The notes under the pieces were generated by a model, which saw only the letters and a list, made by a program, of their open reading frames with translations, made no database searches and had not been told where the DNA came from. Positions 20,937 through 35,987 of a DNA stretch of 64,000 bases are shown here, piece by piece (within the stretch, counting starts at the first letter, position 1; every line of letters begins with the position of its first letter). The stretch is from positions 508 to 64,507 of the forward strand of contig CAMTUI010000026.1 of NCBI GenBank assembly GCA_947084985.1. The letters run 5' to 3'. The translations under genes and the position numbers were made by a program. The stretch is from Methanobacteriota archaeon. GTDB lineage: Archaea; Thermoplasmatota; Thermoplasmata; RBG-16-68-12.

Positions 20937-21623
20937 TTGAGAGACGCATCGGAAGAGGGGGCGCCCCGCGAGGGCTTGGGCGTCGTGCCGACGGGCTATG
21001 CAATCTTCGGACCGAAGACGGTCCCGCGGGTCGACCACGAGCGAATTTTCGTGCTAGACGGTCAGGCGAATCTGCTCGGGGAGTATGCCCTGCGGGACGA
21101 GTGCCCGCTCGAGTACGCCGACCTCAAACGGTCCATCCCGGCAAGCGGGATGCGGCACCTCGTGTCCTTCTACCAGGGGGAATACGCCTTCACGCCCTTC
21201 CGCGTGGATGACATCTGGTTCGTCGTCCTGACGCGGGGCGTGCCGCGGATCGAGGACCGCGGCTCGATCGGGACCCTCCTCGCGGCGATGCGGCTCCATC
21301 TCCCCACCGTCCTCGCTCCCGCACTCGCGGAGCGGGAGGCGGTCCTCCGCCGACTGGAGCGCGATCTCGACGAACGAGAAGCATCGCTCATCATGCGGGA
21401 GCAACGTGTCGCACTACGGGAGTCGGAACTCCACTTCACGAACGCGACGCTCCGGGAGTTGGAGGTCGACGTGCTGGCGCGGGAGAACAAACTGAACGCG
21501 CTCCGCGACTATGCGGTCCGGATGCAGATCGCGTTCCGGAATGGGGAACCCAAACCACCGATGCAAGACCCGAAGAAGCGCAGCCCACACGAGTCCGACG
21601 TATCCGCCGGCCCGTCCCCGTGA
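20937..21623 (+). CDS. Coiled-coil protein, paralogue A of the triad (228 aa): conserved alpha/beta domain + short coiled coil
   Basis: The listed ORF overlaps the ACT gene, so I chose TTG 20937, which is preceded by GGGAGG 7 nt upstream. The domain 'RIFVLDGQANLLGEYALRDECPLEYADL...IWFVVLTRG' aligns with the two downstream genes. Confidence 0.65.
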   Translation: MRDASEEGAPREGLGVVPTGYAIFGPKTVPRVDHERIFVLDGQANLLGEYALRDECPLEYADLKRSIPASGMRHLVSFYQGEYAFTPFRVDDIWFVVLTRGVPRIEDRGSIGTLLAAMRLHLPTVLAPALAEREAVLRRLERDLDEREASLIMREQRVALRESELHFTNATLRELEVDVLARENKLNALRDYAVRMQIAFRNGEPKPPMQDPKKRSPHESDVSAGPSP

Positions 21624-21737: not shown

Positions 21738-23141
21738 ATGCAAGGGCTGATCGAGTCCCTCCTGTCGGGCATCGTGATGCGAGGCCTCAGCCCGACGCTC
21801 GTCTCCGTCCTGATGTCCGCGCCCCTGAAGAAAGTCACGCGAGCGCAACTCAAGAAGATCTACGTGCTCGACGATCGAGGCGAAATGGCGGGCGAGTACA
21901 TCCTCGACGCCGACTGCCCAATCGACTACAACGATTTTCTGAAGGTACTCCCCAACGAAGGGATCGGCGATCGCGATTCCCTCTTCGTCGGGGAGTACGT
22001 GTTCACGGCATTCCAGAGCGGCAGGTTCGTGTTCGTCCTCCTGTCCCGGGGCCAGCTGGCCACGGAGGACTTCGACTGGACGGCACTCCTCCTGACCGCA
22101 GCGGACTCTCATCTCGCCCGTGGCGCGGCCCGTCCGGTTCCCGCGCGTCCTTCGGAGGCGACGCCCGAGTCCGACAAGGCCCTGGCCGAACGCGAGTCGC
22201 GGATCGAATCCCGGGAGAAGGCCCTCGCGGAACTCGAGGTGAAGCTGAAGGCCGAGCAGGCGAACCTCGCCGGTCGCGGCGAAGAACTCGACCGACAGAA
22301 GCAGCGGCTCGCGGCCCTGGCAGACTACTCCGCGAGGATGCAAGACACGGTCACGAAAGGCGTGAATCGAGCGCTCAAAACACTCGAACTCGCGGAGCAG
22401 ATCTCTGCGACCTCGCGCACGGAATCGACGAAGACCGACGCGAAGGCCGCACTGGAACTCCGACAACGGTTCGAGCGAGAGCGGCAGGAACTCCTCGCCG
22501 CGAAGGCGGGCCTCGATGGGAAGTACCGCGATGCCGTCTCCCGGATTTCCAGGCTTGAGCAGGAGGCGAAGGACGCCGTCGCCAAGCTCGAGAACGAACG
22601 GGCGGCGGCGTCCGTGCGCGTCGCCGAGGAAGAGAAGACCCGAAGGGAGATCGAGACTCGTGTCGCCGAGCTGAGCCAGAGGTTCGCGGCCATGGCGAAG
22701 GAGAGGCTCGTCGCATCCCACCGGACGACGGAGCCGTCCGAGGCCGTCAAGCGGGCCGAGGAAGGCGAGAAAGCGGAGCTCGCGCGGGAGCGGAAGTTCC
22801 TCCAGCGTCGAGCGATCGAACTCCTCGATCGCGAGGAGCGGGTCCGGGATCACGAGGCGAGGGCGGAGCAACGGGAGCGGGACGTCGCACGGCGGGAGGA
22901 CGAGGTCGTGGCTCGCGAGGCGGACCTCGAACGGCAGAAGGTGCTTCTCGCCCAGGCGAAACTCCAGCCCGCGGAGGTCCGGGCGGAGAGCAACGAGGCC
23001 CGGAAAGACATCGAACGGCGGGTGAAGATCATCCAGCAGAAGGCCCTCGAACTGCTCGACCGTGAAGAGAAGCTGCGGAAGCGCGCGGCGGAACTCGAGG
23101 CGATGGAAGCCCGTCTTGCGGGACGGGTACCGGCCGGATGA
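21738..23141 (+). CDS. Coiled-coil protein, paralogue B of the triad (467 aa)
   Basis: The domain 'KIYVLDDRGEMAGEYILDADCPIDYNDF...FVFVLLSRG' is followed by about 310 aa of E/R/A/K/L-rich heptad-like sequence. The C-terminal 117 aa are homologous to the C-terminus of the giant gene. Confidence 0.75.
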   Translation: MQGLIESLLSGIVMRGLSPTLVSVLMSAPLKKVTRAQLKKIYVLDDRGEMAGEYILDADCPIDYNDFLKVLPNEGIGDRDSLFVGEYVFTAFQSGRFVFVLLSRGQLATEDFDWTALLLTAADSHLARGAARPVPARPSEATPESDKALAERESRIESREKALAELEVKLKAEQANLAGRGEELDRQKQRLAALADYSARMQDTVTKGVNRALKTLELAEQISATSRTESTKTDAKAALELRQRFERERQELLAAKAGLDGKYRDAVSRISRLEQEAKDAVAKLENERAAASVRVAEEEKTRREIETRVAELSQRFAAMAKERLVASHRTTEPSEAVKRAEEGEKAELARERKFLQRRAIELLDREERVRDHEARAEQRERDVARREDEVVAREADLERQKVLLAQAKLQPAEVRAESNEARKDIERRVKIIQQKALELLDREEKLRKRAAELEAMEARLAGRVPAG

Positions 23142-23263: not shown

Positions 23264-26200
23264 ATGCGTCCAGCCCTCGCGGTCACGCTAGTTCTTGCCC
23301 TCATCGCCAGCGTGCTCGCGGCCCCGCTCATCGTCGCGCATCCGGCGTCCGCGGATCCGTGGCCGACGAACAACGGAGACGGCACGTCGGTGGTCCTTTG
23401 GAACTTCACGAATCCGTCCGACTACGCGCTCACGGACGCGGAAGTCATCGGCGGGAGCGCTGCCCTCAAACGGCAGCTCGGGTGGTGGAACAGCACGAGT
23501 GCGGCAGACTTCACGGGACCCGACAGCGCCACGAACGCGAACTGGACACGTTGGCCCGGGGACGTCGTCATGGATTCCGTGGCCGGGCCGTCGACCCTCG
23601 TCACGATCCAGCCCGATGGGGCGACGGGCCTCGATGCCTATCTGGATCGCGGCAACGCGGACACGAACCGTGGTGCCGACGCGAGCATGGTCTTCGAGCC
23701 CCGCGGGTCAACCACTCGGCGGCCGATCCTTCAGTTCAGCCTTTCGGCTATCCCTGCAGGCGCGCTCATCGACGACGCAAAGCTCAGCCTTTACATGAGC
23801 GGCGCAGCGGCGAATTCTCCGGTGGCGGAAGTCCATTCGGTGACCGCGGCCTGGAACGAGGGTCAGGTTACCTGGAACAACCGCCTGACTGCGACGCCGT
23901 GGGGGAGTGCCGGGGGCGACTTCGTTGCCCATGTCGTCGATCAGTTGAGCCTCAACGCATCGCTAGGATGGAAGACGTGGAACGTCACGCAGCTCGTCGA
24001 CCTGTGGTATCGTGGGCGCCTCTCGAGCAACGGCCTTATCCTCACGGGCCCCACGACTGGACCGAACTTCGACAAGACGTTCTGGTCCTCTGATTATGCG
24101 GTAGACCCCAGCCTCCGTCCGAAGCTCGAGGTACGGTACCGAGTCATCGGGGCCGCCGGTGAGTACGTTTCCCGCGTCGGGGGGCCCGGTTCCCTCGTCG
24201 CCTGGGACTCCATTTCCTGGAACATGACGGAACGATCCTTCGCGACGGATGAGTTCGCCGGATCGTCCCTGGATCCAAAATGGACGTGGACAAACCCGCC
24301 CACCTCGTACGACGTCGGCACGACGACACCGGGGAGCCTCCATGCGGTATCGACGACAGGCGGGGACCTCGACGGAGCCACGTTCTCGGGCAACGTGCTC
24401 GCGAACGAAGTGGCGGGCGACTTCACCGCAATCGCGATGATCAGCGGCGACCCGACCGTAAGCGGGCAAAAACACGGACTCATGGTCCTGCTCAACAGTC
24501 GCAACTGGTACGCAATCCAGAAGGTAAACGCTTCGGGGAGCGTCAACTGGCAGGCGAAGTCCACCGCCGATGCCGCCACCGTAATCCGCGCGAACGTCGC
24601 GAGCGGGAACCCCGTTCCGGCGTGGTACCGGATCGGGCGATCCGGGAACACCTTCACGGCGTCAACGAGCTCCGATGGTGTTTCTTGGACCACACGGGAC
24701 ACGTACACGCCCGCGTTCGAGTATCCCCTCGAGGTCCGGATTGCCGTTTTCCTGACCGACGGACTCTCCGGGACCGCCCACACGGTCGATGCTGACTACG
24801 TCCGCGTGAACATCAGCAACGACGCCACGGTCGCCGTGAGCACGAGGACGGGGAACACGAGCACGGTGGACGCCTCCTGGTCCGCGTGGTCCGCACCGTA
24901 TCCTGCTCCGTCCGGTTCCCCCATGTCGGGGCGCACGAACTATGCACAGTTCCGCCTGACCTTGTCCGTCGCGTATCCGGATCACACGCCAAACATCGGC
25001 GACGTGAACATCTCCTGGACGACGTACCCGGCCTCGGGGACCGTCGAGACCGCGGATTTCGCGCCGGGCGACTTGGCGGAGTGGGACACGTTCGACGCCG
25101 TCCACACACTCAATGGACAGACGGTTGCGTACGCCTACTCGACGGATTCCGGCGGAAACTGGACCCCGTTGACACCGCCGCAATTCCTCCTGGGGGTGAG
25201 TACCGCCAGCGGAACAATCCGCTTCCGCGCGACACTCTCAACGGCGAGCGCGACCCTCACGCCGGTTGTCCGCGAGATGCGCCTCACGTATCGGCACATG
25301 CTGGACCACTTCTACGTGACGGCGTCATCGACCGCGACAGCGGGCGCCTCCTTCTCCATGACGGTGACTGCCAAGGACGCGGGCAACGCAACGATGACCT
25401 GGTGGACGGGCACCGTCACCCTTGACGCGGTACTGCCGGACGGCGTCACCCCCGCAAGTGGGGTCCTCGGCGTGACGAGCCTCGCGATTTCCGCAGGTGG
25501 CACGGCCACCTTGACCACGGAAACGTACACGAAGGCCGAGGTCATCCGGATCCGCGCAAGCCTCGGAACCGTGTCGGGTCTGAGCGGCCCGATCGATGTC
25601 TCTCCGGGCTCACTGAATCGAATCGCCGTGACGCCGAACGACGTCACTCTCCTTCCGTTCGACGGCCAGATTCTCACGGCCACCGGCTACGACGCCTGGA
25701 ACAATGTGATCTCAGTCCTCCCCTTCGGTTGGTCCGTCACCGGGGGCGTCGGGAGTTTGAACCTCTCTACCGGACCGAGCGTGAATTTCACTGCGAGTCC
25801 CCCGCCCGCGAACGGGATCGTCGAGGCGTCCGTTGGCGCAATCGTGGGGATTGCGCAAATCCATGTTGTCTCGGGCATCCGGCCGTGGGTCACGATCTCA
25901 GCGCCGGCGAGCGGAGACCATCTGACCGGCGCCGCGTCAGTTGATTACACGAACAGTTCCGATGCGGTGTCGATCCGCTTCGAGTACGACGACGGATCCG
26001 GATGGACGCTCATCGGGATGACGGTGACACTCAATGGGACGTTCCTCTGGGACACGACGGGACTCGACTTCGCGGGCGGGAGCCTTCGGGCGATCGTCAC
26101 GAACAATCGGGCGACCACGAACACGACGACAGTGACTCCGATCGAGGTCGACAATACCCCGCCCACCATCACGGTTGGCTCGGCTGTCGATTCGCAGTCG

Positions 26201-29200
26201 ACGAGCGGGACAATCACGCTCACATACGCAACATCACCCGATGTCGTCCAGGTTAACTTCGCATACTTCGACGGGGCATGGAACTCCATCGGTTCCGACG
26301 TCACCGTTGACGGCTCCTACGTGTGGACGCCCGGCATCCCGATCAACGGAGTGACGGTCCGCGCAACCGCCGTGGACGAGGTGGGCCTATGGGGAACCGG
26401 CGAGAGACTAGGGATTGGCAACCGCACCGTGGGCACAAACCCGCCATCAATCCAAGGGATCCCGGCCCTCCACGTTCGCGTGGGCACGGCGTACGGCCTG
26501 AACCTCAGCTTCTACGTCTCCGATCCCGACACGGGTCTCGCGTCCCTCTCGATCACGGTCGCGGATCCTGCGAACGTCACGGTCCTCGGTGGCCCCTACC
26601 CGAGCCTGACGATCACCTACGGGACATCGGGCACCTTCGTGCTCACTGTGTGGGTGTCCGACGGTATCGACACCGCCTGGGCCTTCCTCACAATCATCGC
26701 CTCCGGCGTGAGCCCGCCTGTCGTCCTCCTAAATCCTCCGGCGGTGGCCTTCGATGAGGATACGACCTCGGTCAACGGATTCGGCGTACCGGCCGGAACG
26801 TTCATCGATGATCCCGACGGGGACCCCCTCACGTTCGAGGTCCTCGGAAACCGGACGGTACACGTCCGAGTGAACGCGGGAGGGACAATCGACTTTTGGG
26901 CCGATCCGAACTGGTACGGCTCCGAAGCGATGCGACTCCGCGCAACGGATCCCACCGGCGGATTCGCGGAGACCTCCTTCATCGTCCTCGTGCGGTCCGT
27001 CAACGACGCGCCCATCCTCGCTCTGATCCCGGACCTCTCAATCGACGCAGCTGTGACATACATCCTTAACCTCGGTCCGTTCCTTTCCGACGTCGACACC
27101 CCGCTTTCCTCCGTGACCGTGACGACGGACAGCCCATACGTCACGGTGAACGGACACATCCTCACCCTGGCGTTCCCGTCCGATTGGACGAACGCCGATA
27201 TCCAAATCACCGTCTCCGATGGCTCGGCGGTCGCGCTCCAGACCGTGCGGGTGGCGTTCCGCGTCACCCCGACCTGGTGGAGCTCCCCCTACGTGCTCGC
27301 AATCCCGCCTATCGGTGTATTCGTGGTGGTAGCCATGTTTGCGCAACGCGCGCGCTGGAGGCCGACGAAGGCCTTCCTTGTGGACGAACGCGGTCGAATG
27401 ATCAGGGAATTCACCCTGGATCCCTCCTGTCAGGTCACGTACGACGAGGCCGTGCAGGCGGGCGCCTTGGAGGCCGTCGAGAAGCCGATCAAGGTGGCCA
27501 AGTACCACGCCCAGACGGTCCGTGGGGACGCCCTCGCGGTCGTCCTCCTGGCCGTCGGCCCCGTGACCGTGGAGCAGGTCGAGTTCGCGCGGGAGATGCT
27601 CGTCCAGATTCAGGACAAGTTCGAGGACACGGTGAAGTCCCGCCTCGAGGAAGCGCGGGCGTACGAGGCGGAACTCGAGGGGCAGGCGAATTCGATCGGG
27701 GAGCAGCAGGCGGCCATGGAGGGACGAGCCACGGAAATCGAATCCATGATCCAGCAGGTCGAGGTCGCGCAGTCGAAGGTCTCGACGGAGACGGCGGCTC
27801 TCGCCACGCGAGAGCAATCTCTCGAGGCCCGCGAGCGGCAGGTCGCCGAAGACCGACGGGTCGTGGACGACTTGGCACGCCAGCTCGAAGAGCTTCGCGT
27901 ATCCCTCGAAAATAGAGGCGCGAAGATCCAGGAGCAGGCCGGAGAGGTCGTTCGGAGGACGGAGGCCATCGTCGCGAGGGAGAATGCGATCGCCCCGCAC
28001 GAGGAGGCCCTCGCGAAGCGGGAGGAAGGGATCGCCGCGGCGGAAGCGGCTCTGAAGGCCCAGGCGGAACTCATGGACAGGAAGGCATCCGACTTGGCGG
28101 CCCAGGAGCACGTCCTGGCCGAGCGCGGGGCCGTTGTGACAGACGAAGAGGAGGAACTCCGTGCCGCACAACAGGCGTTCGAAGATGACCAGAAGGAAGT
28201 GCTGGATTTCCGAGCGTCGATTGACTCCCGCGTTGCGGCCGTGGAAAAAGCGGAGTCGGATATCGCATCGAATCGCAAGGAACTCGAGGACCGCGAATCG
28301 CGCATCACGCCGAAAGAAAAGGAACTTCAAGAACGGGAGTCCGCCCTACTGGACAGGGAAACGGCCATCCAGGCGGAGATCGCCAAGCGCACGAAACATC
28401 TCGAAGACCGAGAGGCCCAGCTTTCCCAGGAGGCGGAGCAGCTCCAGACAAAGAGCCAGGAGATCGAACAGAGTCTCCGATCCATCGAGACCCAGTCGAA
28501 CGAGCTGTCCGCCGAGCGAACGAGCATCGACGAAGGTCGCGCGGCTCTGGAGCGCGAACGAGCCTCCTTGGAGAGACGCATTCAGACACTGGATGCCGAG
28601 CTGCGAACGCGAAAGGAGGACCTCGACGCTCAGGCACGAGCGGTGGCGGACGGACAGCTTCAGCTCTCTCAGGACAAGCAGACGTTTGACGGGCTGAGGG
28701 GCGAGAAATCCCATTGGATCGCATCGAAGGAGATTGAGCTCGAGTCGCTGGAACAGGCCCTCTCCGAAAAGGAGGCGGCCGTCCGCTCGCAGGCCGAGCA
28801 GAACGCGCAGCAGCTCGCGGACCTGGCCGCCCGAGAGGAGACCCTCGAAATCGAGGCGGATCGGCTCGAGAAGGACCACGCCGAACTCGACGCGCGCAAG
28901 GGCGAGCTCGACAAGCTCGCGAAGAACCTCGACGCGAAGGCCGTGCAGCTTCGCGAGGAAGAGGCCCGCAAAGCGGAAGAGTACCGCACGTGGCAGGCAA
29001 CCCTAGAGTCGGAGCAGACCCTCCTGCGGCAGCAGCGGGAGACCTTCGAGAAGGAAATGTCCGACCTCCGCGACTCCTGGGCCGCCCGAATGCTCCGCAT
29101 CCAGGAGCGCGAGGAGAATGTTGCGGCGCGCGAGGAAAAGGCAGGCGAGGGCATTGAATGGGCCGCGAAGGCCGAGGAAGAAGTAACGCGCCGCGAGAAG

Positions 29201-31582
29201 GCGGTTCAGACCGCGTCCGCCGAGGCGGACCGAATGAACGCCGAGGTCGAGGCGAAACGGAAGGAGGTCGAGCAGCGAGCCTTCGAGGTGGAAGCTCGTG
29301 AACGGTCCCTGCGCGAGGAGGCGGCCACGCATGCGGATGAACTCACACGACGCGACGCGGCCTTGCGGACCGCGGAGAGTCAGCTGGCCGAGAAGCGCGC
29401 GGAAATGGAACGGAATCTGACCGCCCGGTCCCTGAAGTTGCAAGAAGCCGAGACGGACATCACCCGTAAGGGGCAAGAGAACGATGCCAAGATCGCAGAG
29501 GTGACCGGCCGGGAAGTGCGGCTCGTTTCCCTCCAGGAGTCCCTGCGGCAAGAACAGGAACGCCTCGTCCGGGAGCGAAAGGACCTCCAGATCGCAGCCG
29601 AGCAGCTGGACGCGAAGCAGGTCGAGCTGGCCCAACAGAGGCAGCGTCACGCCGAAGAGGCCGTGCGCTTCCAGGCGGAAGCGGAGTCGATCCGCCATTC
29701 CCTCGCCGCGAAGGAAGCGGACCTGCAATCGGAGCGGGAACGGCTCGAGAGGGAGTCTACATCCCTGCAGGACCGTCTCGGAGCGAAAGCGCAGGAGTTC
29801 GTGTCCCGGGAACGATCAATCTCCGCGCGCGAGGACGAACTCCGTGCGGAAGAGCAAGATCTCGAAGGCCGCATCCGAGCCATCGAATCGCGAGAACGAC
29901 AGGTCGATGCGCAGGCGGGAGAAGTCGCCGCCCAGACCGCCGCTCTGTCGAAACGACAGGCCGAGGTCGACGCGCGAGCCGCCCAACTCGAGACGATGGC
30001 GCGGAAGTTGCTCGTCGACCAGGAGGAAAAGCAGAAAGAATGGGAATCCGTGCGGACCGCCCTCAAGTCGCAGGAAGCGAAAATCAGCGCGACGGCGGAA
30101 TCGCGGATGGCACAGATCACCGAGCAGGTCACGGAACTCGAAGCTCAAGAACGGTCCCTTGCCGTGACGGCAGCCCAGCTCGAGGCGGAAACGGCGCGGC
30201 TCGCAGATGCTGCGAAGGCCCAGTCGGCGAAGGACGCGGAGGCGTCCGCGGCGATGTCGCGGGCTGAGAAGCGGTTCCAGGAGATCCAGGCCCGTGAGGC
30301 GGAAGTCCTCCAGATGCGTCAGGCGTTCGAGTCGGAGCGATCCTCTTGGGCCAGCCGGCGGGCGGAGGAACTCAAGCAGCTCGAGGCGACCCGCGATGCG
30401 GCTGCGGAGCAGACACAGAAGGCGGAGCGGCTCACCCAGGACGCGCAGCGGCGCGCTCTCCTGGCGAGCGAAGCGGAACGGGCCGCGAGGCGCCAGGCGG
30501 ATGACCTTGCGGCCTTGCATGCCGATCTGGAGACGCGCCGCGCCGATCTCGATAAGCTCGAGCGGACGCTGAAGGCTCAGAACTCCCAATACCAGGAGAC
30601 CTCGCGCGGGCTCGCCGTGAAGGAAACGGAGCTCACCGCGCGCGGGAAGGATCTCCAGGCAGAGCAGGCGCGTCTCGTCGCAGCGGAGCAGGACCTCACA
30701 TCGAAGACGGAGGGCCTGAAGGCTCGCCAAGCGAATCTGGAGCGGGAGGCGGCCCGCGTCGCGGAACTCAACGCGAACACCGAAGCGCGCAAGGCTGACG
30801 CCCAGGCGCGCGTGAGCGCCGCGGAAGCGAAGATGGCCGAGGTCGCCCAGCGTGAGCGTGTCCTCACCACGGAGCTTCAGCGGGCGGAAAACCTGATGGA
30901 AGATCTCGGGCGCAAGCAAGATGAGATTCGCGCAAAGGAGAAGACGCTCGCATCCGTCGAGGCGGACTTCGGAATGCGTAAGTCCGCGGTGGCCCAAAAG
31001 GAGGCCGAGCTGAAGGAGGGCCTGAAAGTCCTCGAGTCGATGCGACGGGACCTAGAGGCCCGGCTCGGGGCCATCGACCAGGACCGCTCGGCGGCTGCGA
31101 CGGCTCGCGAAGAGGCCGTGGCCCTGAAGGCCGAGGCGGACCGGGCGAAGGCACAGGTCGAGACGATGGGGAAGGAGGTCGCCAAGAACATGAGGTTCCT
31201 CCAGAAGAAGGCCGTCGACGTCCTCGACCGCGAGGAGAAGGTCCGCGATCTCGAGCAGAACGCGCAGGAACGGGAAAAGACGCTGGAGGCCCGCGCGGAA
31301 ATCCTCGAGGCAAAGGAGAAGGCGATCGAGGAGGAGCGCACCCAGATGGTCGCCAAGATGGAACGGCTCCAGTCCGAGATCGACCGGTTCAAGGGGAAGC
31401 TCTCCGATGCTGAAAAGGCCGCGAAGCCGACCGCCGAGATGGAAGACTGGAAGAAGGACATCGACAACCGCGTGAAGATCATCCAGCGGAAGGCGATGGA
31501 CCTCCTGGACCGCGAGGAGAAGCTCCGGAAGAGGGAGGAAGAGCTCCAGGCGCTCGCACAGCAGCTCGGCGTGAAGCCCTAA
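23264..31582 (+). CDS. Giant single-pass membrane protein (2772 aa): secreted multi-domain ectodomain, one TM helix, cytoplasmic alpha/beta domain and very long coiled coil (paralogue C)
   Basis: This is an uninterrupted 8.3-kb ORF with a signal peptide 'MRPALAVTLVLALIASVLAAPLIVAHPASA'. It carries a DNRLRE-like module ('ADTNRGADASM...ILQFSLSAIPAGALIDDAKLSLY...VTAAWNEGQVTWNN'), a ConA/LamG-like module ('DEFAGSSLDPKWTW...') and Ig-like and cadherin-like ('SVNDAPIL') repeats. The TM segment is 'SPYVLAIPPIGVFVVVAMFA', followed by 'QRARWR'. Confidence 0.85.
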   Translation: MRPALAVTLVLALIASVLAAPLIVAHPASADPWPTNNGDGTSVVLWNFTNPSDYALTDAEVIGGSAALKRQLGWWNSTSAADFTGPDSATNANWTRWPGDVVMDSVAGPSTLVTIQPDGATGLDAYLDRGNADTNRGADASMVFEPRGSTTRRPILQFSLSAIPAGALIDDAKLSLYMSGAAANSPVAEVHSVTAAWNEGQVTWNNRLTATPWGSAGGDFVAHVVDQLSLNASLGWKTWNVTQLVDLWYRGRLSSNGLILTGPTTGPNFDKTFWSSDYAVDPSLRPKLEVRYRVIGAAGEYVSRVGGPGSLVAWDSISWNMTERSFATDEFAGSSLDPKWTWTNPPTSYDVGTTTPGSLHAVSTTGGDLDGATFSGNVLANEVAGDFTAIAMISGDPTVSGQKHGLMVLLNSRNWYAIQKVNASGSVNWQAKSTADAATVIRANVASGNPVPAWYRIGRSGNTFTASTSSDGVSWTTRDTYTPAFEYPLEVRIAVFLTDGLSGTAHTVDADYVRVNISNDATVAVSTRTGNTSTVDASWSAWSAPYPAPSGSPMSGRTNYAQFRLTLSVAYPDHTPNIGDVNISWTTYPASGTVETADFAPGDLAEWDTFDAVHTLNGQTVAYAYSTDSGGNWTPLTPPQFLLGVSTASGTIRFRATLSTASATLTPVVREMRLTYRHMLDHFYVTASSTATAGASFSMTVTAKDAGNATMTWWTGTVTLDAVLPDGVTPASGVLGVTSLAISAGGTATLTTETYTKAEVIRIRASLGTVSGLSGPIDVSPGSLNRIAVTPNDVTLLPFDGQILTATGYDAWNNVISVLPFGWSVTGGVGSLNLSTGPSVNFTASPPPANGIVEASVGAIVGIAQIHVVSGIRPWVTISAPASGDHLTGAASVDYTNSSDAVSIRFEYDDGSGWTLIGMTVTLNGTFLWDTTGLDFAGGSLRAIVTNNRATTNTTTVTPIEVDNTPPTITVGSAVDSQSTSGTITLTYATSPDVVQVNFAYFDGAWNSIGSDVTVDGSYVWTPGIPINGVTVRATAVDEVGLWGTGERLGIGNRTVGTNPPSIQGIPALHVRVGTAYGLNLSFYVSDPDTGLASLSITVADPANVTVLGGPYPSLTITYGTSGTFVLTVWVSDGIDTAWAFLTIIASGVSPPVVLLNPPAVAFDEDTTSVNGFGVPAGTFIDDPDGDPLTFEVLGNRTVHVRVNAGGTIDFWADPNWYGSEAMRLRATDPTGGFAETSFIVLVRSVNDAPILALIPDLSIDAAVTYILNLGPFLSDVDTPLSSVTVTTDSPYVTVNGHILTLAFPSDWTNADIQITVSDGSAVALQTVRVAFRVTPTWWSSPYVLAIPPIGVFVVVAMFAQRARWRPTKAFLVDERGRMIREFTLDPSCQVTYDEAVQAGALEAVEKPIKVAKYHAQTVRGDALAVVLLAVGPVTVEQVEFAREMLVQIQDKFEDTVKSRLEEARAYEAELEGQANSIGEQQAAMEGRATEIESMIQQVEVAQSKVSTETAALATREQSLEARERQVAEDRRVVDDLARQLEELRVSLENRGAKIQEQAGEVVRRTEAIVARENAIAPHEEALAKREEGIAAAEAALKAQAELMDRKASDLAAQEHVLAERGAVVTDEEEELRAAQQAFEDDQKEVLDFRASIDSRVAAVEKAESDIASNRKELEDRESRITPKEKELQERESALLDRETAIQAEIAKRTKHLEDREAQLSQEAEQLQTKSQEIEQSLRSIETQSNELSAERTSIDEGRAALERERASLERRIQTLDAELRTRKEDLDAQARAVADGQLQLSQDKQTFDGLRGEKSHWIASKEIELESLEQALSEKEAAVRSQAEQNAQQLADLAAREETLEIEADRLEKDHAELDARKGELDKLAKNLDAKAVQLREEEARKAEEYRTWQATLESEQTLLRQQRETFEKEMSDLRDSWAARMLRIQEREENVAAREEKAGEGIEWAAKAEEEVTRREKAVQTASAEADRMNAEVEAKRKEVEQRAFEVEARERSLREEAATHADELTRRDAALRTAESQLAEKRAEMERNLTARSLKLQEAETDITRKGQENDAKIAEVTGREVRLVSLQESLRQEQERLVRERKDLQIAAEQLDAKQVELAQQRQRHAEEAVRFQAEAESIRHSLAAKEADLQSERERLERESTSLQDRLGAKAQEFVSRERSISAREDELRAEEQDLEGRIRAIESRERQVDAQAGEVAAQTAALSKRQAEVDARAAQLETMARKLLVDQEEKQKEWESVRTALKSQEAKISATAESRMAQITEQVTELEAQERSLAVTAAQLEAETARLADAAKAQSAKDAEASAAMSRAEKRFQEIQAREAEVLQMRQAFESERSSWASRRAEELKQLEATRDAAAEQTQKAERLTQDAQRRALLASEAERAARRQADDLAALHADLETRRADLDKLERTLKAQNSQYQETSRGLAVKETELTARGKDLQAEQARLVAAEQDLTSKTEGLKARQANLEREAARVAELNANTEARKADAQARVSAAEAKMAEVAQRERVLTTELQRAENLMEDLGRKQDEIRAKEKTLASVEADFGMRKSAVAQKEAELKEGLKVLESMRRDLEARLGAIDQDRSAAATAREEAVALKAEADRAKAQVETMGKEVAKNMRFLQKKAVDVLDREEKVRDLEQNAQEREKTLEARAEILEAKEKAIEEERTQMVAKMERLQSEIDRFKGKLSDAEKAAKPTAEMEDWKKDIDNRVKIIQRKAMDLLDREEKLRKREEELQALAQQLGVKP
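27284..27343 (+). other. Predicted transmembrane helix of the giant protein (aa 1341-1360)
   Basis: This is the only long hydrophobic stretch after the signal peptide. The positive cluster RARWRPTK on its C-terminal side suggests the C-terminus is cytoplasmic. Confidence 0.7.
27629..31579 (+). repeat. Region encoding about 1317 aa of low-complexity E/A/R/K/Q/L coiled coil
   Basis: Heptad-like, almost Pro/Gly-free sequence with recurring 'xRExxL' units (for example 'DRESRITPKEKELQERESALLDRETAIQ'). I saw no exact nucleotide tandem repeats. The region generates long spurious antisense ORFs. Confidence 0.75.
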
Positions 31583-31629: not shown

Positions 31630-32106
31630 TTGCCCGGCCCAGGGAGAGAGATGATAGACCGCCGAGTCATCGAGACGCCGCTCGGGGGCGTCGAAGTCTT
31701 CACGGAAGACGGACGGCTGAAGGCCTTGAACCTCACACGGGCGCGACCCACACCGGCCGCGGACCGCGAGCTGATCGTCCGCGAAATTCAGCGGTACTTC
31801 GCTGGGGAACCCGTCCGATTCGAGAACCTGCCGCTCGATCTGAGCGATTCCACGGAGTTCGAGAAGAAAGTCTACGAGGCCACGCGGGCAATTCCGTTCG
31901 GCAATGTGGCCACATACGGCCAAATCGCGAAGGCGATCGGAAAACCGAAGGCCGCTCGGGCCGTTGGACAGGCTCTCGGGAACAACCCGATTGCAATCGT
32001 AATCCCGTGCCATCGGGTCGTTGCTTCGGACGGCGGCCTCGGGGGCTTCACGGGCGGACTGCACTGGAAGAGGAAGCTCCTCCGGCACGAGGGCGTGTTG
32101 CACTAG
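31630..32106 (+). CDS. ogt: Methylated-DNA--protein-cysteine methyltransferase
   Basis: Contains the active-site motif 'IVIPCHRVV' and 'ATYGQIAKAIGKPKAARAVGQALGNNP'. Confidence 0.9.
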   Translation: MPGPGREMIDRRVIETPLGGVEVFTEDGRLKALNLTRARPTPAADRELIVREIQRYFAGEPVRFENLPLDLSDSTEFEKKVYEATRAIPFGNVATYGQIAKAIGKPKAARAVGQALGNNPIAIVIPCHRVVASDGGLGGFTGGLHWKRKLLRHEGVLH

Positions 32107-32115
32107 CCGTGCGCG

Positions 32116-32720
32116 TCATCGTCGCGTCGCCTTTCGCATCGCCCGGTCGAAGTCCTCGAAGAGATCGTCGATGTCCTCGAGGCCTACGCTCACGTGCACG
32201 AGGCCTTCCGTGACCCCGCTCACGCGTCGCTCCTCGTCCGTCAAGGGTCCGTGAGTCATCGACGCGGGATGCTTGACTAGGGTCTCGACGCCGCCGAGGC
32301 TCACCGCGAGGGTGGCTACATCGACGGACTCGACGAACCGTTTCCCGGCGCGGTAGCCGCCCTTCAGCTCGAAGCTCACCATCGCGCCGAGGCCCGACAT
32401 CTGCTTCCGGGCGAGGGACCGCTGCGGGAACGACTTCAACCCGGGATAGTGCACGACCTTCACGGCGCGATGGTCCTCGAGGAACTCCGCAAGGGCTTGC
32501 GCGTTCGTCCCGTGAGCCACCATTCGCAGGGGCAGCGTCTTGAGTCCGCGCCGGAGCCGTTGCGACCGCGAAATCGGCACCTTGCTTCGCGGATTCTAGA
32601 ACCCAAGTCGACGTCGCGTAGATCGGCGTGACGATGGGGCGATGGCCCTTCCTCCGCCGTCCGTGGATCGCCTGCGTCTTGGGCCTCCGGCGCCGGGCCA
32701 CGGGGCCGGGCACTGCGACA
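32116..32720 (-). pseudogene. Cys/Met-metabolism PLP enzyme (cystathionine gamma-synthase/O-acetylhomoserine sulfhydrylase family) remnant with a large internal deletion
   Basis: The N-terminal motif 'TQAIHG...PIVTPIYATSTWVLESAKQGADF' is in one frame. It joins directly (about 32565..32580, with a frame change) to the family C-terminus 'LRRGLKTLPLRMVAHGTNAQALAEFL...SLGGVETLVKHPASMTH...VSVGLEDIDDL'. The PLP-lysine core is missing. Confidence 0.6.
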
Positions 32721-32880
32721 ACGACGTAATACGTTTCGCGAGGCCGCGGGCGATCGATCTGGACGCGCCGCGGCCCTCCCGAGTGAATTAAAACCGGAAA
32801 GGTCAAAAAGGGGACCCGCATTCGAGCCATTGCTCGGCCCCCGATCAAGGGCCGGGCCAAACGCCCTAGGAGGCGACCGG

Positions 32881-33309
32881 ATGTCGCGAGAAGTGGACTT
32901 CGCAGCCAAGCCGATCGATCCGGACTTCATGAACAAGCCCGACGAGTATCCGGAGACAGGCACCCATTTCGGTCATAAGGTCTTCGCCGAGGGCAAGGAA
33001 CGGCCGGACGCCGACGGCAACCCCTACCCCACGAAGTTGGGGATCCACGGTACCCACGTCGCTGTCGACTTCGACGGATGCATCGCAGACGGCGTCTGCA
33101 TGGACGTCTGTCCGGTCGACGTGTTCGAGTGGGAATTGGCGCCGGGAAAGAAGGGGACCGGGAATGATATCGGGCCCCTCGACCACAACAGCGAGGAGTG
33201 GCAGAAGTACCGGACGGACAAGTCCGATCCGATCCGGGAGTCGGACTGCATCGACTGCATGGCATGCGAGACGGCCTGCCCAACGAAAGTCATCAAGATT
33301 TCTCCATGA
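32881..33309 (+). CDS. Dicluster ferredoxin with N-terminal extension (archaeal zinc-containing ferredoxin type)
   Basis: Contains 'CIADGVCMDVCP' and 'CIDCMACETACP'. I chose ATG 32881, which is preceded by AGGAGG 7 nt upstream. Confidence 0.85.
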   Translation: MSREVDFAAKPIDPDFMNKPDEYPETGTHFGHKVFAEGKERPDADGNPYPTKLGIHGTHVAVDFDGCIADGVCMDVCPVDVFEWELAPGKKGTGNDIGPLDHNSEEWQKYRTDKSDPIRESDCIDCMACETACPTKVIKISP

Positions 33310-34282
33310 GTCCTCCTCCCCTTCGATTTCTGGCGTCCACAGGATAGCGGACCATCTCAGTCCTTCTGCGGCGTGGCGCGGTCGCCTTCCGCCCGAGAGA
33401 CCGAATCCGCGCGACGAACCCGGCCAGCAGGTCCGGACGTCGGTAGATCGCGATCACGAGGGGCAGGGCGACCGCGAGGTACGCGACGTGCGCGATGACC
33501 CGAGCCCACTCTGGGTTCTGGGAATATCCCAAGAGCACCGCGAAGACGGAGCCGACGTACCCCTTGTGGTGGAGAGGGTCGGGCGGGGTCGTGGCGTCGC
33601 CGCCGAACAGCCCGAGGTTGTACGCCGGTGTGGCCCACCATCCCAGGTCGTAAGCGCCCGTCTCGCCGCCGTACTCGATCAGCTCGTGGACGCCGTATCC
33701 GAGCAAGCCGCCTGCGACGAGGATGAGGAGGATGCTCGTGAAGTAGAAGAACCGGCGGAGGTCCAGCTTGATCCCGACGCGGAAGATCGCGTACGCGAGG
33801 CCGACGCCCGCGCCGATGCCGAGAGCCGCGCCGAGGAGCGTCATCCCGACTTCCTGCACGAGGAAAGGCGTCAGGAACAGGACGGTCTCGAGGCCCTCCC
33901 GGAATACGAGCACGAACGTCACGGACGATAGCCCGAGAATCGCGCCCTGGGTCACCGCGGCCTCGACCCGGGTCTCCACCTCGCGCTTGAGCGTCCGGCC
34001 CTTTGCGGCCATCCAGTAGATCATCGACGTGAGCACGGCGACCGCGATCAGGGCCGCGACGCCCTCGAAGAGAAACCGCTGGGAATCTGAGAGGGCACCG
34101 TAGGCGAGCCAGACCGCGGCCCCGAGGCCGAAGCTTGCGGCGATCGCCCCGTAAATGCCGTACCAGGCGTACCGGACCATGTTCTCTCGTCCCGTGCGGA
34201 CAAGGAAGGCGAGGATAATCGCAGAGAGCAAGGCGGCCTCCAACACTTCCCGGAACGTCAGGAGGTACTGGGCGACGACCAT
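33293..34282 (-). CDS. FTR1/EfeU-family high-affinity iron permease
   Basis: Two REXLE-type motifs ('FREVLEAALL' and 'FREGLETVLF') sit in a polytopic membrane protein. Confidence 0.85.
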   Translation of the reverse strand: MVVAQYLLTFREVLEAALLSAIILAFLVRTGRENMVRYAWYGIYGAIAASFGLGAAVWLAYGALSDSQRFLFEGVAALIAVAVLTSMIYWMAAKGRTLKREVETRVEAAVTQGAILGLSSVTFVLVFREGLETVLFLTPFLVQEVGMTLLGAALGIGAGVGLAYAIFRVGIKLDLRRFFYFTSILLILVAGGLLGYGVHELIEYGGETGAYDLGWWATPAYNLGLFGGDATTPPDPLHHKGYVGSVFAVLLGYSQNPEWARVIAHVAYLAVALPLVIAIYRRPDLLAGFVARIRSLGRKATAPRRRRTEMVRYPVDARNRRGGGLMEKS

Positions 34283-34297
34283 GGGATTCCTTCGCGG

Positions 34298-34368
34298 TTT
34301 TCGGTTAGCCTAAATTGGCGCCGTCGCGGCGAAAACGGCGTAATATTTAAGGTTTCGGTCAACCGAAA
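34298..34368. promoter_or_regulatory. Candidate DtxR/IdeR operator elements in the divergent FTR1 / DtxR-family intergenic region
   Basis: 'GGTTAGCCTAA' (34303..34313) equals the core of the classical DtxR box TTAGGTTAGCCTAACCTAA (14/19 overall). The perfect palindrome TTTCGGT-CA-ACCGAAA at 34353..34368 lies next to 'TAATATTTAA'. Confidence 0.45.
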
Positions 34369-34453
34369 TCCGGTGCATGCTGAAATCAAGCGCGGGTCGT
34401 CAAACACACGCAACTACAGTACGTACGATGGGAATCGCCCAGACGAATTCTTT

Positions 34454-34933
34454 ATGGCCCTCGTCCGGTTTGGGATGCCCGAAACGATGGCCCAGACCGT
34501 CCAGCTCACGGAGAACGTCGAGATGTACCTCAAGTACATCCACCTCCTCTCTCAGGCCCATGGCGGGCCCGCAAAGACCGGTGAGGTCTCCCACCACCTC
34601 CGGGTCACGCCGTCGAGCGTGACGGAGATGCTCGACCGGCTCCAGGCTGAGGGCTTCTTGAAGCACGAAAAGTACCAGGGGGCCTCCCTCACGAAAAAAG
34701 GGCGAGACGTCGCCGTGCGGATCCTCCGGCGACACTGCACGATGGAATACTTCCTCGCCCAGGCTCTTGGCGTTCCGGAGGGAAAGTACCACGACGAGGC
34801 GTGCGAGATGGAGCACGTCCTCAGCGACGACACGGCCCGGCGTCTACGGAAGCTGATCAAGCAGCCGGACACATGCCCTAACTGCTACGACCTCGAGAAG
34901 CTCCACTGCCGCCACCTGTCCGGGAAGCGCTAG
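34454..34933 (+). CDS. DtxR/IdeR/MntR-family metal-dependent repressor
   Basis: Contains 'VEMYLKYIHLL', 'VTPSSVTEMLDRLQAEGFL' and 'RRHCTMEYFL...HDEACEMEHVLS'. The start is uncertain (ATG 34454, 34475 or 34487). Confidence 0.85.
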   Translation: MALVRFGMPETMAQTVQLTENVEMYLKYIHLLSQAHGGPAKTGEVSHHLRVTPSSVTEMLDRLQAEGFLKHEKYQGASLTKKGRDVAVRILRRHCTMEYFLAQALGVPEGKYHDEACEMEHVLSDDTARRLRKLIKQPDTCPNCYDLEKLHCRHLSGKR

Positions 34934-35754: not shown

Positions 35755-35987
35755 CGTCCGCTTCGAACGCGCGACGCAAGATAAAGGCATCGCGGTTCGC
35801 AAAGCGTTTAGTCGGAACAACGCATCCTGCGTGCGAGCGGACAACCGATCCGAGTGCCCTACGGCCTGCGGAAGATCGAGTCGTGCCTCGTGCAGGTGTA
35901 CGGCCGGGACGACGTCGTGATTGCAGACGCGAGACATCTTGACCGCTACATCGACGACGACACAGAGGTCGTCTCGGCCTGCATTCA

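Follow-up and report, generated by a model that had tools for sequence, protein, structure and literature searches.

A predicted giant membrane protein of soil Thermoplasmata with a variable surface region, a longin-like module and a coiled-coil tail of about 1,300 residues

The 64-kb window, meaning the whole stretch of DNA that was analysed, contains three neighbouring paralogous genes, referred to here as A, B and C:

20982..21623, forward strand: paralogue A, about 213 aa (start codon uncertain), consisting of the module described below and ~85 aa of coil
21738..23141, forward strand: paralogue B, 467 aa, with an N-terminal helix, the module, a coil of ~300 aa and a C-terminal double motif
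23264..31582, forward strand: paralogue C, whole gene, a 2,772-aa type I membrane protein in one unbroken ORF

The product of C is laid out as a signal peptide, an ectodomain of ~1,310 aa, one transmembrane (TM) helix, an 87-aa alpha/beta module and a 1,317-residue tail, with base 31582 being the final base of its stop codon:

23264..23353, forward strand: aa 1–30, putative signal-peptide-like N terminus, MRPALAVTLVLALIASVLAAPLIVAHPASA, read from the translation
23354..27283, forward strand: aa 31–1340, extracellular region with Pfam and NCBIfam matches above cut-offs
27290..27343, forward strand: aa 1343–1360, single TM helix, YVLAIPPIGVFVVVAMFA, recognised from sequence and kept in all C-type relatives
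27368..27628, forward strand: aa 1369–1455 (87 aa), predicted longin/roadblock-like alpha/beta module (AlphaFold2 and Foldseek)
27629..31579, forward strand: aa 1456–2772 (1,317 aa), coiled-coil tail, with a heptad period, an a/d core and heptad-quantised indels

The initial annotation of this locus was confined to bases 27284–31582, which represent the C-terminal 1,432 residues of ORF 23264–31582 (27284 opens codon 1341), and its coordinates leave out the signal peptide and the ectodomain of ~1,310 aa upstream. An exact look-up found no record of an identical 2,772-aa protein in public assemblies.

N termini similar to the signal-peptide-like start of C were found in two relatives (L017 and L003). 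The ectodomain contains a DNRLRE/CBM96 domain at aa 124–290, matched by both NF033679 (95.4 bits, cut-off 34) and PF24517 (48.5 bits, cut-off 26), followed by a ConA-like domain (aa 328–478) and Ig-like domains (Big_9, aa 1160–1237). The length of this region in relatives lies between 915 and about 3,260 aa, and its sequence is in some cases unrelated; in one of them (L010) it has been replaced by unrelated T/S/G/A-rich repeats. Directly after the TM helix lies the basic stretch QRARWRPTK, which fits the positive-inside rule with the tail on the cytoplasmic side.

The module that follows was modelled by AlphaFold2 with a mean pLDDT of 91.7. The predicted order of elements is strand-strand-helix-strand-strand-strand-long helix (E6-14, E19-24, H33-38, E49-51, E54-60, E64-71 and H76-145 in the model), giving the five-stranded antiparallel sheet of the longin/roadblock fold. 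The globular part covers approximately aa 1366–1435, and the last helix begins at approximately aa 1436 and continues into the coil, extending more than 70 residues beyond the globular part. In a Foldseek search of the PDB the top 50 matches were all longin or roadblock proteins (AP mu/sigma, zeta-COP, sedlin, MglB, Rag C-terminal domains, LAMTOR and SRX) with probabilities of 0.94–1.0, E-values of only 6e-3 to 0.1 and TM scores of 0.30–0.50 when normalised to the query and at most 0.59 when normalised to the target. With the sequence, no match was obtained in Pfam (E ≤ 10) or NCBIfam (E ≤ 1) and no relevant one among PDB sequences. From the structural model, a longin/roadblock-type fold is predicted with high confidence. 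The module is also the most conserved part of C, with a majority fraction of at least 0.9. Domains of this fold, which is usually discussed for eukaryotic trafficking and Asgard archaea, characteristically dimerise and have a small GTPase as their usual partner. No ORF with G1, G3 and G4 motifs was found in the 64-kb window, an absence which is not decisive. Taken together, there is good support for an architecture in which a signal peptide and a large lectin-like/Ig-like surface region lead to a TM helix, a submembrane longin-like domain and an unbroken helix into the coil.

The tail is composed mainly of A (17.3%), E (17.0%), R (11.1%), L (9.3%), Q (8.1%) and K (6.6%), with E, K, R and D together making up 40% of residues, and it contains 29 Gly and only four Pro (1578, 1683, 2722 and 2772). 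The Fourier power of LIVMFWY residues reached 35.6 at a period of 3.52, compared to a maximum of 9.2 in 50 shuffles, and the local heptad phase was coherent over the entire tail. When the register was assigned by dynamic programming, position a was found to be 56% hydrophobic plus 18% Ala and position d 49% plus 10% Ala, with 4–10% hydrophobic residues at b, c, e, f and g, a pattern of period and a/d core that is expected of a two-stranded coiled coil. The core is rather polar, with Arg/Lys accounting for 24% of position d. Approximately ten register discontinuities of the skip, stutter and stammer kinds were detected, which are compatible with a continuous coil. Conserved helix breakers are limited to three in the 1,317 aa, namely P1683 (near-invariant, present in 92% of sequences), the invariant G2173 and a loop at ~2720. 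These properties indicate that the tail is a genuine coiled coil of ~1,300 residues and not disorder, in line with the ~84% helix that AlphaFold2 predicts, at low confidence, from the single sequence. The single TM helix, the module at 27368..27628, the tail of 1,317 residues and its scarcity of Pro had all been put forward in the initial annotation, and the sequence it quoted and its coordinates were confirmed; disorder, which it had set against coiled coil as the matter for register prediction to decide, was not indicated. Its description of the coil as nearly uninterrupted holds for the phase, which is coherent throughout, and has to be tempered by the discontinuities.

A single alpha-helix (SAH) or a disordered charged region could be suggested for a tail so rich in E, R, K and Q, given that E/D(i)–K/R(i+4) pairs are enriched (83 compared to 52 ± 6) and that AlphaFold2 confidence is low. 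Both were rejected in view of the clear a/d hydrophobic seam and an E+K+R+D content of 40%, a composition and seam that do not describe an SAH, and together with a decaying or artefactual ORF, discussed below, they represent an explanation to which we give almost no credence. A chain of helical bundles of the spectrin or EzrA type, reversing every ~100–140 residues and giving a shorter and more flexible structure in which a 105-aa unit (see below) is one bundle, was judged very improbable. This unit, variable in copy number, has nearly the length of a spectrin repeat (106 aa), EzrA is likewise built of a TM helix at its N terminus and an extended helical portion in the cytoplasm, and the AlphaFold2 monomer model, run on the single sequence, splits the tail into nine long helices of 44–144 aa. 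However, that model has low confidence (pLDDT 57, pTM 0.26), and single-chain models of coiled coils often fold back artificially. Furthermore, the spectrin fold needs two loops per ~105 aa, whereas the tail has three conserved breakers in all; the heptad phase runs unbroken through the 105-aa unit with one conserved Pro per unit, no spectrin or EzrA match was found in Pfam, and no repeat of that type was recognised. Searches of the tail, the module and paralogues A and B against Pfam, NCBIfam and PDB sequences yielded nothing beyond coiled-coil noise below the thresholds (RNase_Y_N, SMC, Nucleoprot-TPR and VBS).

Comparison with orthologues divided the coil upstream of the C-terminal region into two zones:

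27650..28498, forward strand: aa 1463–1745, proximal third of the coil, least conserved (0.47–0.68) and the hot spot for indels
28499..31099, forward strand: aa 1746–2612, distal coil, conservation 0.57–0.88 (mostly 0.65–0.85) and dN/dS 0.10–0.17

The proximal third is built from 105-aa (15-heptad) units, seen as the motif RE-x-x-I-x-P-x-E-x-x-L-x-x-RE at P1578 and P1683, spaced by exactly 105 aa. A 105-aa insert in one relative (L001) holds one more copy of this motif, and other lineages show changes of +105, −105 and −203 aa in the same third. Most of the register discontinuities (~1819, 1917, 2018, 2132, 2172 and 2276) lie in the distal coil, together with G2173. The 105-aa unit is diverged and was detected only by orthologue alignment and profile search: Tandem Repeats Finder reported only one 21-nt ×2 match, self-BLASTP of the tail with composition correction gave no internal repeats, and profile autocorrelation over the whole tail, with peaks at 113–127, 233–240 and 346–353, revealed no 28-aa or 105-aa super-period above other multiples of 7.

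Orthologues of C were identified at 22 genome loci, identity among 14 complete orthologues was 35–66%, and the ORF was intact and free of frameshifts in all orthologous contigs of sufficient length. Eight orthologue tails are exactly 1,377 aa and free of indels at 58–60% identity between clades, and the remaining tails deviate from this set by 7 or 105 aa. Across the family, tail length measured from the MxREFTL motif to the stop ranges nearly two-fold, from 778 to 1,490 aa, with gain or loss of the 105-aa unit as the chief source of change. Indels were mostly multiples of seven (7, 14, 28, 70, 105 and 203 aa), as expected of a coiled coil, with exceptions of 155, 381 and 18 aa and of 1–3 aa in a loop. 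As dN/dS along the coil was 0.10–0.31, orthologues are intact and indels are heptad-quantised, a decaying or artefactual ORF was rejected; on this comparative evidence the C ORF is real and under purifying selection, and the length and register of the tail are clearly selected as well. The constancy within clades and the discrete steps across the family look like those of an adjustable spacer and not of one universal ruler, and the nearly two-fold variation implies that a single fixed distance is not essential. The suggestion in the initial annotation that length is maintained by selection is thus borne out by the eight identical tails and the multiples of seven, and has to be narrowed in view of the family-wide range; random length drift with frameshifts, its refuting case, was not seen. 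Its remark that there is no recent tandem array stands for the nucleotide sequence, where the longest repeat has 76% identity, with the diverged 105-aa unit to be added at the protein level.

The end of the tail forms a region of its own:

31100..31579, forward strand: aa 2613–2772, conserved C-terminal region, conservation 0.84 (aa 2628–2648) and 0.94 (aa 2732–2772)
31171–31245 and 31453–31527, forward strand: two copies of the motif K-x-[LI]-Q-x-K-A-x-[DE]-L-L-D-R-E-E-K-[LV]-R (direct repeat D4)

D4 is the longest direct repeat (75 nt, 76% identity), and a loop around P2722 lies between its two copies. The C-terminal region of C matches the C terminus of paralogue B (tblastn E = 4e-8), and motifs of the LLDREEKLR type are also present in this soluble paralogue; every complete relative of the C or B type has the double motif. 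When the last 145 aa of C served as query in a word-indexed search for homologues, only seven fragments were returned. No TM helix was seen in B, which lies immediately upstream of C in related genomes too, and B-type proteins of 290–470 aa are the commonest form in the family. Paralogue A ends in the motif L-x-A-L-x-D-Y-A-x-R-M-Q, common to B, and is located upstream of B also in L001, L003, L009 and L017, the gene order A-B-C being conserved. In a more distant genome (L024), a protein of 1,237 aa has the TM helix, module (E = 5e-10), coil and C-terminal motif and is without an ectodomain, and it adjoins a separate gene for a 1,554-aa ectodomain and TM protein. An hhalign comparison of the cytoplasmic tail of the latter with the module profile was not significant (probability 2%), and a separate ectodomain-TM-module gene is therefore a visual lead only. 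The family is rare, with 98 clusters among 1.84 billion representative proteins, and its named members are all soil Thermoplasmata. It is undescribed, with no account of it found in the literature on archaeal giant coiled-coil proteins, on longin/roadblock domains with coiled coils in archaea or on PF27881, and is without a curated model in the libraries searched (Pfam and NCBIfam). The longin-like identity of the module, the two paralogues and the shared C-terminal domain offer the best clues to mechanism and were absent from the initial annotation.

The explanation we prefer, while rating its chances at somewhat under even, is that C, a lineage-specific protein of uncultured soil Thermoplasmata, forms a rod of two parallel strands, nucleated by the longin-like domain and up to ~195 nm long, between an exchangeable surface domain and a conserved docking end in the cytoplasm, its function being proposed from sequence. 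The longin-like domain would pair two C chains, or C with paralogue A or B, at the membrane, and this pairing would set the register of the parallel coil. The membrane-proximal third would then act as a spacer of 105-residue units (15 heptads, ~15.6 nm), the number of which varies by lineage and would change the length in quantised steps with the register left undisturbed. The distal two thirds and the C-terminal region of ~160 residues would represent the docking end, for C itself, the A/B paralogues or another partner. The ectodomain would be exchanged freely among relatives and the cytoplasmic part held constant, and as the surface region is swapped while the cytoplasmic part and docking end are constrained, the job is most likely mechanical or scaffolding. 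In such a role, C would fix both the distance and the geometry between a variable surface-binding module and a conserved coiled-coil assembly that lies in the cytoplasm or beneath the membrane. The ruler, the tether and the link to the nucleoid that the initial annotation put forward are likewise speculative.

Parallel pairing is suggested by the anchoring of both chains by an N-terminal TM helix beside the start of the coil, and by the fact that an in-register homodimer would automatically match discontinuities which are not periodic. Charges lend themselves to a less definite reading: attractive g–e′ pairs numbered 34 compared to 25.9 ± 3.9 expected (z = 2.1), and the charge score was 0.041 at a stagger of 0, 0.050 at 14 and 0.043 at 21, so the in-register arrangement is not singled out. 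Against the preferred explanation, the longin assignment is a matter of predicted structure and weak Foldseek E-values, without sequence-profile support, and the heptad phase of the tail has a significant mirror symmetry about aa ~2034 of the kind that an antiparallel fold-back would be expected to give. In such a fold-back, which we consider unlikely, a turn at ~aa 2034 would allow residues 2034–2612 to pack on 1456–2034, or two molecules would overlap in antiparallel fashion, giving a rod of ~86–100 nm, and the C-terminal region would be brought back to the longin-like domain, next to the membrane, in the way that the arm ends of SMC and Rad50 meet at the head. When the hydrophobic profile was cross-correlated with its reverse, a single peak stood out, at i+j = 4068, with a value of 61.2 over a background envelope of 6–30; shuffles of segment order gave 34.0 ± 5.1 and reached the observed value in 1 of 2,000, and all sixteen 35-aa windows along the arm (16/16) were in phase. 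In the +105 forms (L001, P0116, P0117 and P0123) the dyad falls at mid-coil, at 688–695 of 1,405–1,413 residues, and polar d positions are tolerated in antiparallel coils. However, gains and losses of 105–203 aa in the first arm are unmatched in the second, so that the partner of the coil start would wander from ~2285 to ~2752 (C numbering), and these uncompensated indels argue for parallel pairing instead, as does a candidate fold-back point without a conserved Gly, Pro or loop. In addition, g–g′/e–e′ charge complementarity at the matching alignments was zero or slightly negative, and the symmetry peak was weak in shortened orthologues (33–35 compared to 25–32 for the next best). The symmetry could also come from discontinuities clustered mid-tail (aa 1700–2360) between two canonical stretches grown by duplication. 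The initial figure of ~195 nm for the length of the coil is accordingly kept as an upper bound, given the discontinuities, P1683, G2173 and the shorter rod that a fold-back would produce.

A further arrangement, which could coexist with the parallel rod and to which we assign a small chance, is a filament or lattice in which dimers associate laterally with defined staggers in a sub-membrane skeleton, in the manner of intermediate-filament-type proteins (crescentin, FilP and Scy) or of myosin and paramyosin rods. Conserved distal b, c and f surface residues would be lateral contacts and paralogue B a soluble co-polymer. The conservation of the distal coil (majority fraction mostly 0.65–0.88, dN/dS 0.10–0.17) goes beyond the needs of a passive spacer, and skip-type discontinuities occur every ~100–115 residues, the autocorrelation peaks given above corresponding to one, two and three skips, much as skip residues follow one another at regular intervals along the myosin rod. 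A rigid wall is described as lacking in many Thermoplasmata, a description of the Thermoplasmata and not of the envelope of this lineage, and a membrane skeleton would be useful in such cells. On the other hand, no long-range periodicity of charge or sequence past the heptad was found in the tail, and no similarity to the IF or Ccrp families was detected in Pfam.

An extension of the parallel rod to all three genes is more speculative, and we regard it as doubtful: in soil Thermoplasmata, A, B and C would form one system in which longin-like domains come together on the cytoplasmic side of the membrane and the giant protein couples an exchangeable adhesin or lectin, through a length-quantised rod of ~100–200 nm, to a cytoplasmic coiled-coil skeleton. 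If true, archaea would have an equivalent of the linkers that join surface and cytoskeleton in eukaryotes, which would place a longin and coiled-coil chassis outside Asgard archaea; any surface-to-interior link or membrane skeleton, if confirmed, would bear on the organisation of the envelope in archaea possibly without a wall. Spacers, tethers and skeletons made of long coiled coils have been studied well in eukaryotes and a few bacteria, and to our knowledge almost nothing comparable has been described in archaea apart from SMC-type proteins. The comparative evidence is unusually clean, with heptad-quantised indels, identical tail lengths at ~40% divergence and a surface domain that is swapped freely, and the predicted position of a longin/roadblock-like fold right after a TM helix, nucleating a giant coil in Thermoplasmata, would be a new context for it. 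For protein engineering, the tail may offer a natural modular "molecular ruler" with steps of 15.6 nm, a function proposed from its sequence.

Among known systems, the prokaryotic long coiled-coil scaffolds EzrA, crescentin, FilP and Scy include one with an N-terminal TM helix (EzrA) and one of ~1,300 aa (Scy). All of them lack an ectodomain and a longin-like domain, none shares a Pfam match with C, and the 51-residue repeat of Scy and the spectrin-like bundles of EzrA are unlike what was found in C. NCBIfam models of SMC and of ASRP (archaea-specific SMC-related protein) match the tail in their coil regions only, with 64, 40 and 32 bits against cut-offs of 567, 729 and 300. The mirror symmetry of the tail phase would fit an antiparallel arm of the SMC/Rad50/ASRP kind. 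However, the longin-like module and the LLDREE motifs occupy the two ends of the tail, and indels are uncompensated between the putative arms. Neither an ABC head nor a hinge nor a Walker A accompanied by downstream motifs of the GTPase type was found in C, and as head and hinge are lacking an SMC-like identity was rejected. The rod of myosin II and paramyosin is two-stranded, exceeds 1,000 residues and has a conserved length, few prolines and skips at conserved positions; C differs in being membrane-anchored, without a motor domain and with no 28-residue charge repeat detected.

Longin SNAREs (Sec22, Ykt6 and VAMP7) combine a longin domain, a heptad coil and a single membrane anchor in one chain. 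The order in SNAREs is longin-coil-TM, whereas here it is TM-longin-coil, and the coil has ~20 times the length; C showed neither a SNARE motif nor a zero-layer, and no homology is suggested. Within the longin/roadblock superfamily (Robl-LC7, MglB, LAMTOR, AP sigma/mu N-terminal domains and SRX), the predicted fold and strand order of the module are alike, and its domains are typically platforms for homo- or heterodimerisation; three paralogous copies of the module lie side by side here. The module differs in its position right after a TM helix, in a last helix that passes into a coil of 1,300 residues and in having no small GTPase nearby. Giantin and other membrane-anchored golgins resemble C in their single-pass anchor, cytoplasmic coil of more than 1,000 residues, length of hundreds of nm and functional distal end. 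Coiled coils whose length is conserved serve as spacers between molecules or structures (PMC5082667). Golgins are eukaryotic, with a C-terminal tail anchor, no ectodomain and no expected sequence similarity to C, whereas in C the anchor lies N-terminal to the coil and is joined to a large surface domain.

The long coil lies within a single ORF encoding a 2,772-aa membrane protein (the giant protein, or C-type). The region described in the initial annotation, 27284–31582, forms the final 1,432 codons of this ORF, with base 27284 opening codon 1341. The following elements were recognized, all on the + strand:

23264..31582: giant protein, 2,772 aa, one long ORF
N terminus of the giant protein: signal-peptide-like segment, preceding the ectodomain
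Ectodomain of about 1,310 aa: domain matches to a DNRLRE/CBM96 domain (aa 124–290), a ConA-like domain (aa 328–478) and Ig-like domains
aa 1343–1360: hydrophobic transmembrane (TM) stretch YVLAIPPIGVFVVVAMFA, then QRARWRPTK
aa 1369–1455: module of 87 aa, after the TM helix

The hydrophobic stretch is followed by the basic QRARWRPTK, and the protein is therefore assigned an outside-in type I topology. The 1,317-aa tail (aa 1456–2772) is composed of 17% A, 17% E, 11% R, 9% L, 8% Q and 7% K with only 4 Pro and 29 Gly, so that the description of a TM helix followed by a coil-like tail of about 1,317 residues with few prolines was accurate.

The tail is a coiled coil. Its large hydrophobic residues gave a Fourier peak at a period of 3.52 with a power of 35.6, compared to a maximum of 9.2 over 50 shuffles, and the local heptad phase (35-residue windows) stayed coherent all the way between aa ~1460 and the C terminus, with slow drift only. 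When the register was assigned by dynamic programming, using an alignment of 14 sequences, about 10 discontinuities were needed in the 1,317 residues (at about 1492, 1704, 1819, 1917, 2018, 2132, 2172, 2276, 2642 and 2720), which equal insertions of 1, 3 or 4 residues, namely skips, stammers and stutters. In the assigned register, hydrophobic residues make up 56% of position a and 49% of position d, to which Ala adds 18% and 10%, respectively; an unusual 24% of d is Arg/Lys, and the remaining positions are 4–10% hydrophobic. A single-sequence AlphaFold2 model of aa 1573–2772 was helical over about 84% of its length and contained nine long helices. Due to its low confidence (pLDDT 57, pTM 0.26) this model counts only weakly against disorder and is unreliable for tertiary arrangement. 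As initially suggested, the tail is not a recent tandem array: none was found in its coding sequence at the nucleotide level, and no internal repeats were detectable by BLAST.

The strongest result of the analysis concerns the evolution of tail length, which was counted in complete orthologues from the motif M[LI]REFTL to the stop codon.

Tail lengths in the window and in related genome loci (L numbers)
1,482 aa: L001
1,394 aa: the window
1,377 aa: L002, L003, L005, L007, L008, L010, L011, L015
1,370 aa: L013, L017, L018
1,236 aa: L014

The eight tails of 1,377 aa align with 0 indels although their clades are only 58–60% identical. Compared to these, the 1,370-aa tails are exactly 7 residues shorter and that of L001 exactly 105 longer. 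After eight more diverged complete tails (35–59% identity) were added, indels relative to L005 were +105 (four sequences), −105 (two), −203 (two), −28, −70, several of +/−7 and −14 (three), the exceptions being −155, −381, +18 and 1–3 residues in the P2722 loop. The 105-residue events fall in the proximal third of the coil, in which the motif RE-x-x-I-x-P-x-E-x-x-L-x-x-RE occurs in the window at P1578 and P1683, exactly 105 residues apart, with another copy within the 105-residue insertion of L001.

Conservation along the coil is divided into two zones. The profile was at least 0.9 in the module, 0.47–0.68 in the proximal coil (aa 1463–1745), mostly 0.65–0.88 in the distal coil and 0.94 in the last 40 residues. 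The dN/dS values were concordant with this (module 0.06–0.22, proximal coil 0.19–0.31, distal coil 0.10–0.17). Helix breakers are conserved at just three places in the tail, namely P1683 (92%), G2173 (100%) and the ~2720 loop. Register and length are thus under selection; the earlier proposal that selection keeps the length of a real coiled coil holds, while the interpretation built on it is only partly supported overall. Upstream of M[LI]REFTL, the region (mainly ectodomain) varied from 915 to 3,099 aa in the loci, with a maximum of about 3,260 aa in the protein library. The L010 orthologue (803–14257) carries an ectodomain of ~3,070 aa made up of T/S/G/A-rich repeats and unrelated to the DNRLRE/ConA/Ig ectodomain of the window (23354–27283). 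These repeats recall beta-helix adhesins, and L010 retains the TM helix, module and tail in conserved form.

The module had no match in Pfam, NCBIfam or PDB sequences. Its AlphaFold2 model (46-sequence alignment, mean pLDDT 91.7) showed the order strand, strand, helix, strand, strand, strand and then helix, which is the longin strand order, with the last helix extending more than 70 residues into the coil. In a Foldseek search against PDB each of the 50 best matches belonged to the longin/roadblock superfamily, including the N-terminal domains of AP-complex mu and sigma, zeta-COP, sedlin, MglB, Rag C-terminal domains, LAMTOR, SRX and Asgard roadblock proteins. The probabilities were about 1, yet E-values were weak (6e-3 to 0.1) and TM scores 0.3–0.6, and for this reason the module is only called longin/roadblock-like, as a predicted fold and not as a demonstrated family member. 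It should also be noted that in some orthologue pairs dS was much lower in the module (tail codons 1–80) than in the adjacent coil, as in L005 versus L007 (0.28 against 0.86–0.96), which hints at recombination, gene conversion or extra nucleotide-level constraint.

The module is also common to two shorter paralogues, A and B, whose genes directly precede the giant gene:

about 20982..21623, + strand: paralogue A, ~213 aa, module then coiled coil
21738..23141, + strand: paralogue B, 467 aa, module then coiled coil

For A, the start codon is uncertain because the ORF as listed (20619..) overlaps with the gene of the ACT-domain protein. A and B have in common the motif L-x-A-L-x-D-Y-A-x-R-M-Q, and the C-terminal region of the giant protein is found in B (tblastn E = 4e-8), with K-x-[LI]-Q-x-K-A-x-[DE]-L-L-D-R-E-E-K-[LV]-R in two copies. 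A module profile search of 1.84 billion representative proteins returned only 98 clusters at E <= 1e-3, which form three groups: B-type proteins of 290–500 aa (the commonest), A-type fragments, and giant C-type proteins, which reach 4,767 aa. Wherever a source is named it is a Thermoplasmata MAG, in most cases from soil; among these are "EA_" bins of the Angelo grassland, MAGs of the SMAG catalogue and a single bin labelled Methanomassiliicoccales. The gene order A-B-C is kept in related genomes wherever the contig is of sufficient length. More distant relatives hold a lone B-type gene in the corresponding neighbourhood (ArsR-type regulator, ADP-forming acetyl-CoA synthetase, glyoxalase), and B therefore looks ancestral, with A and C as putative lineage-specific derivatives. 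In L024, one of these more distant Thermoplasmata genomes, two divergently transcribed neighbours were found:

16094–19807, + strand: 1,237-aa protein, N-terminal TM helix followed by the module (E = 5e-10), a long coil and the C-terminal motifs, without ectodomain
10955–15619, − strand: 1,554-aa protein consisting of ectodomain and TM with a short cytoplasmic tail

This pair may represent the unfused state of the giant protein. The cytoplasmic tail of the 1,554-aa protein resembled the module by eye only (hhalign probability 2%, not significant). A precomputed Pfam column assigned PF27881.1 to B-type library proteins (P0214, P0216, P0218–P0222, P0224, P0226, P0228 and P0235); part of the family may hence be already catalogued under this newer accession, probably as an uncharacterised domain. 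No description was found in literature on the family or on PF27881, and an ESCRT survey discussing Thermoplasmata makes no mention of the family (PMC11188069).

The genes flanking the giant gene (window 14966–20805 and 31630–35988) are syntenic with related MAGs and have no evident functional tie to it. Their products are an ArsR-type regulator, ADP-forming acetyl-CoA synthetase, glyoxalase, EamA-like transporter, zinc-ribbon membrane protein, ACT-domain protein, O6-methylguanine methyltransferase, 4Fe-4S ferredoxin, FTR1-like permease, DtxR-like repressor and PP-loop ATPase, the EamA, FTR1 and DtxR labels being readings of the sequence and not Pfam matches. No small GTPase was present anywhere in the 64-kb window. 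A 154-aa ORF (32116–32580, − strand) matched only positions 239–380 of the 381 of a Cys/Met-metabolism PLP-enzyme model (E = 2e-50). Just ~250 nt lie between this ORF and the next gene, so the N-terminal two thirds of the enzyme are missing. Since the same short piece is kept in related genomes at 72–80% identity, the ORF may encode a free-standing C-terminal domain rather than be a recent pseudogene.

When the hydrophobic profile of the tail was compared to its own reverse, one dominant alignment was obtained at i+j = 4068, with a dyad at aa ~2034 and 1456 pairing with 2612. The score there was 61.2, against an envelope of 6–30 elsewhere and 34.0 +/- 5.1 for segment-order shuffles, and 16 of 16 35-residue windows were in phase. 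Exactly this pattern is predicted if the coil forms an antiparallel fold-back or antiparallel dimer of ~86–100 nm, with the C-terminal region returning to the longin-like domain. The symmetry also follows from the clustering of discontinuities between 1700 and 2360, which leaves two clean heptad stretches on either side. A fold-back is considered unlikely: uncompensated gains or losses of 105–203 residues in the first arm leave the dyad at its homologous position, there is no conserved loop at the dyad, g-g'/e-e' charge complementarity is absent, and the symmetry peak is weak in shortened orthologues. A parallel, in-register dimer is suggested instead because both chains are anchored at the N-terminal end of the coil, irregular discontinuities match automatically in register, the large indels are uncompensated, the candidate turn has no conserved breaker, and attractive g-e' pairs are mildly enriched (34 versus 25.9 +/- 3.9).

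In such a parallel dimer, the longin-like domain would dimerise at the membrane and set the register of a two-stranded rod, with the proximal third serving as an adjustable spacer and the distal coil and C-terminal region as a specific interaction surface. The partner of that surface could most economically be the protein itself, A/B or another partner. Since the ectodomain is exchangeable, the giant protein may be a mechanical or scaffolding link from a variable surface-binding module to a conserved cytoplasmic coiled-coil assembly. With a rise of 0.1485 nm per residue, the 1,317 residues extend to at most ~196 nm (~15.6 nm per 105-aa unit), so that the ~195 nm first estimated stands as an upper bound; about 195 nm, or about 90 nm if folded back, are the candidate physical lengths of the rod.

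The giant protein is a real, selected and very long coiled coil, representing a new family with a distinctive architecture. SMC, Rad50 and ASRP families were excluded, there being no ATPase head or hinge and scores of 32–64 bits against cut-offs of 300–729, and the tail lacks the defining features of spectrin/EzrA-type bundles and of SAH domains. Longin SNAREs also combine a longin domain, a coil and a TM helix, though with the order reversed and a coil one-twentieth as long. The nearest analogues by function and architecture are membrane-anchored long coiled-coil spacers or tethers such as giantin and other golgins, together with myosin and paramyosin, whose rods are of conserved length; length-conserved coiled coils as molecular spacers have been reviewed (PMC5082667).
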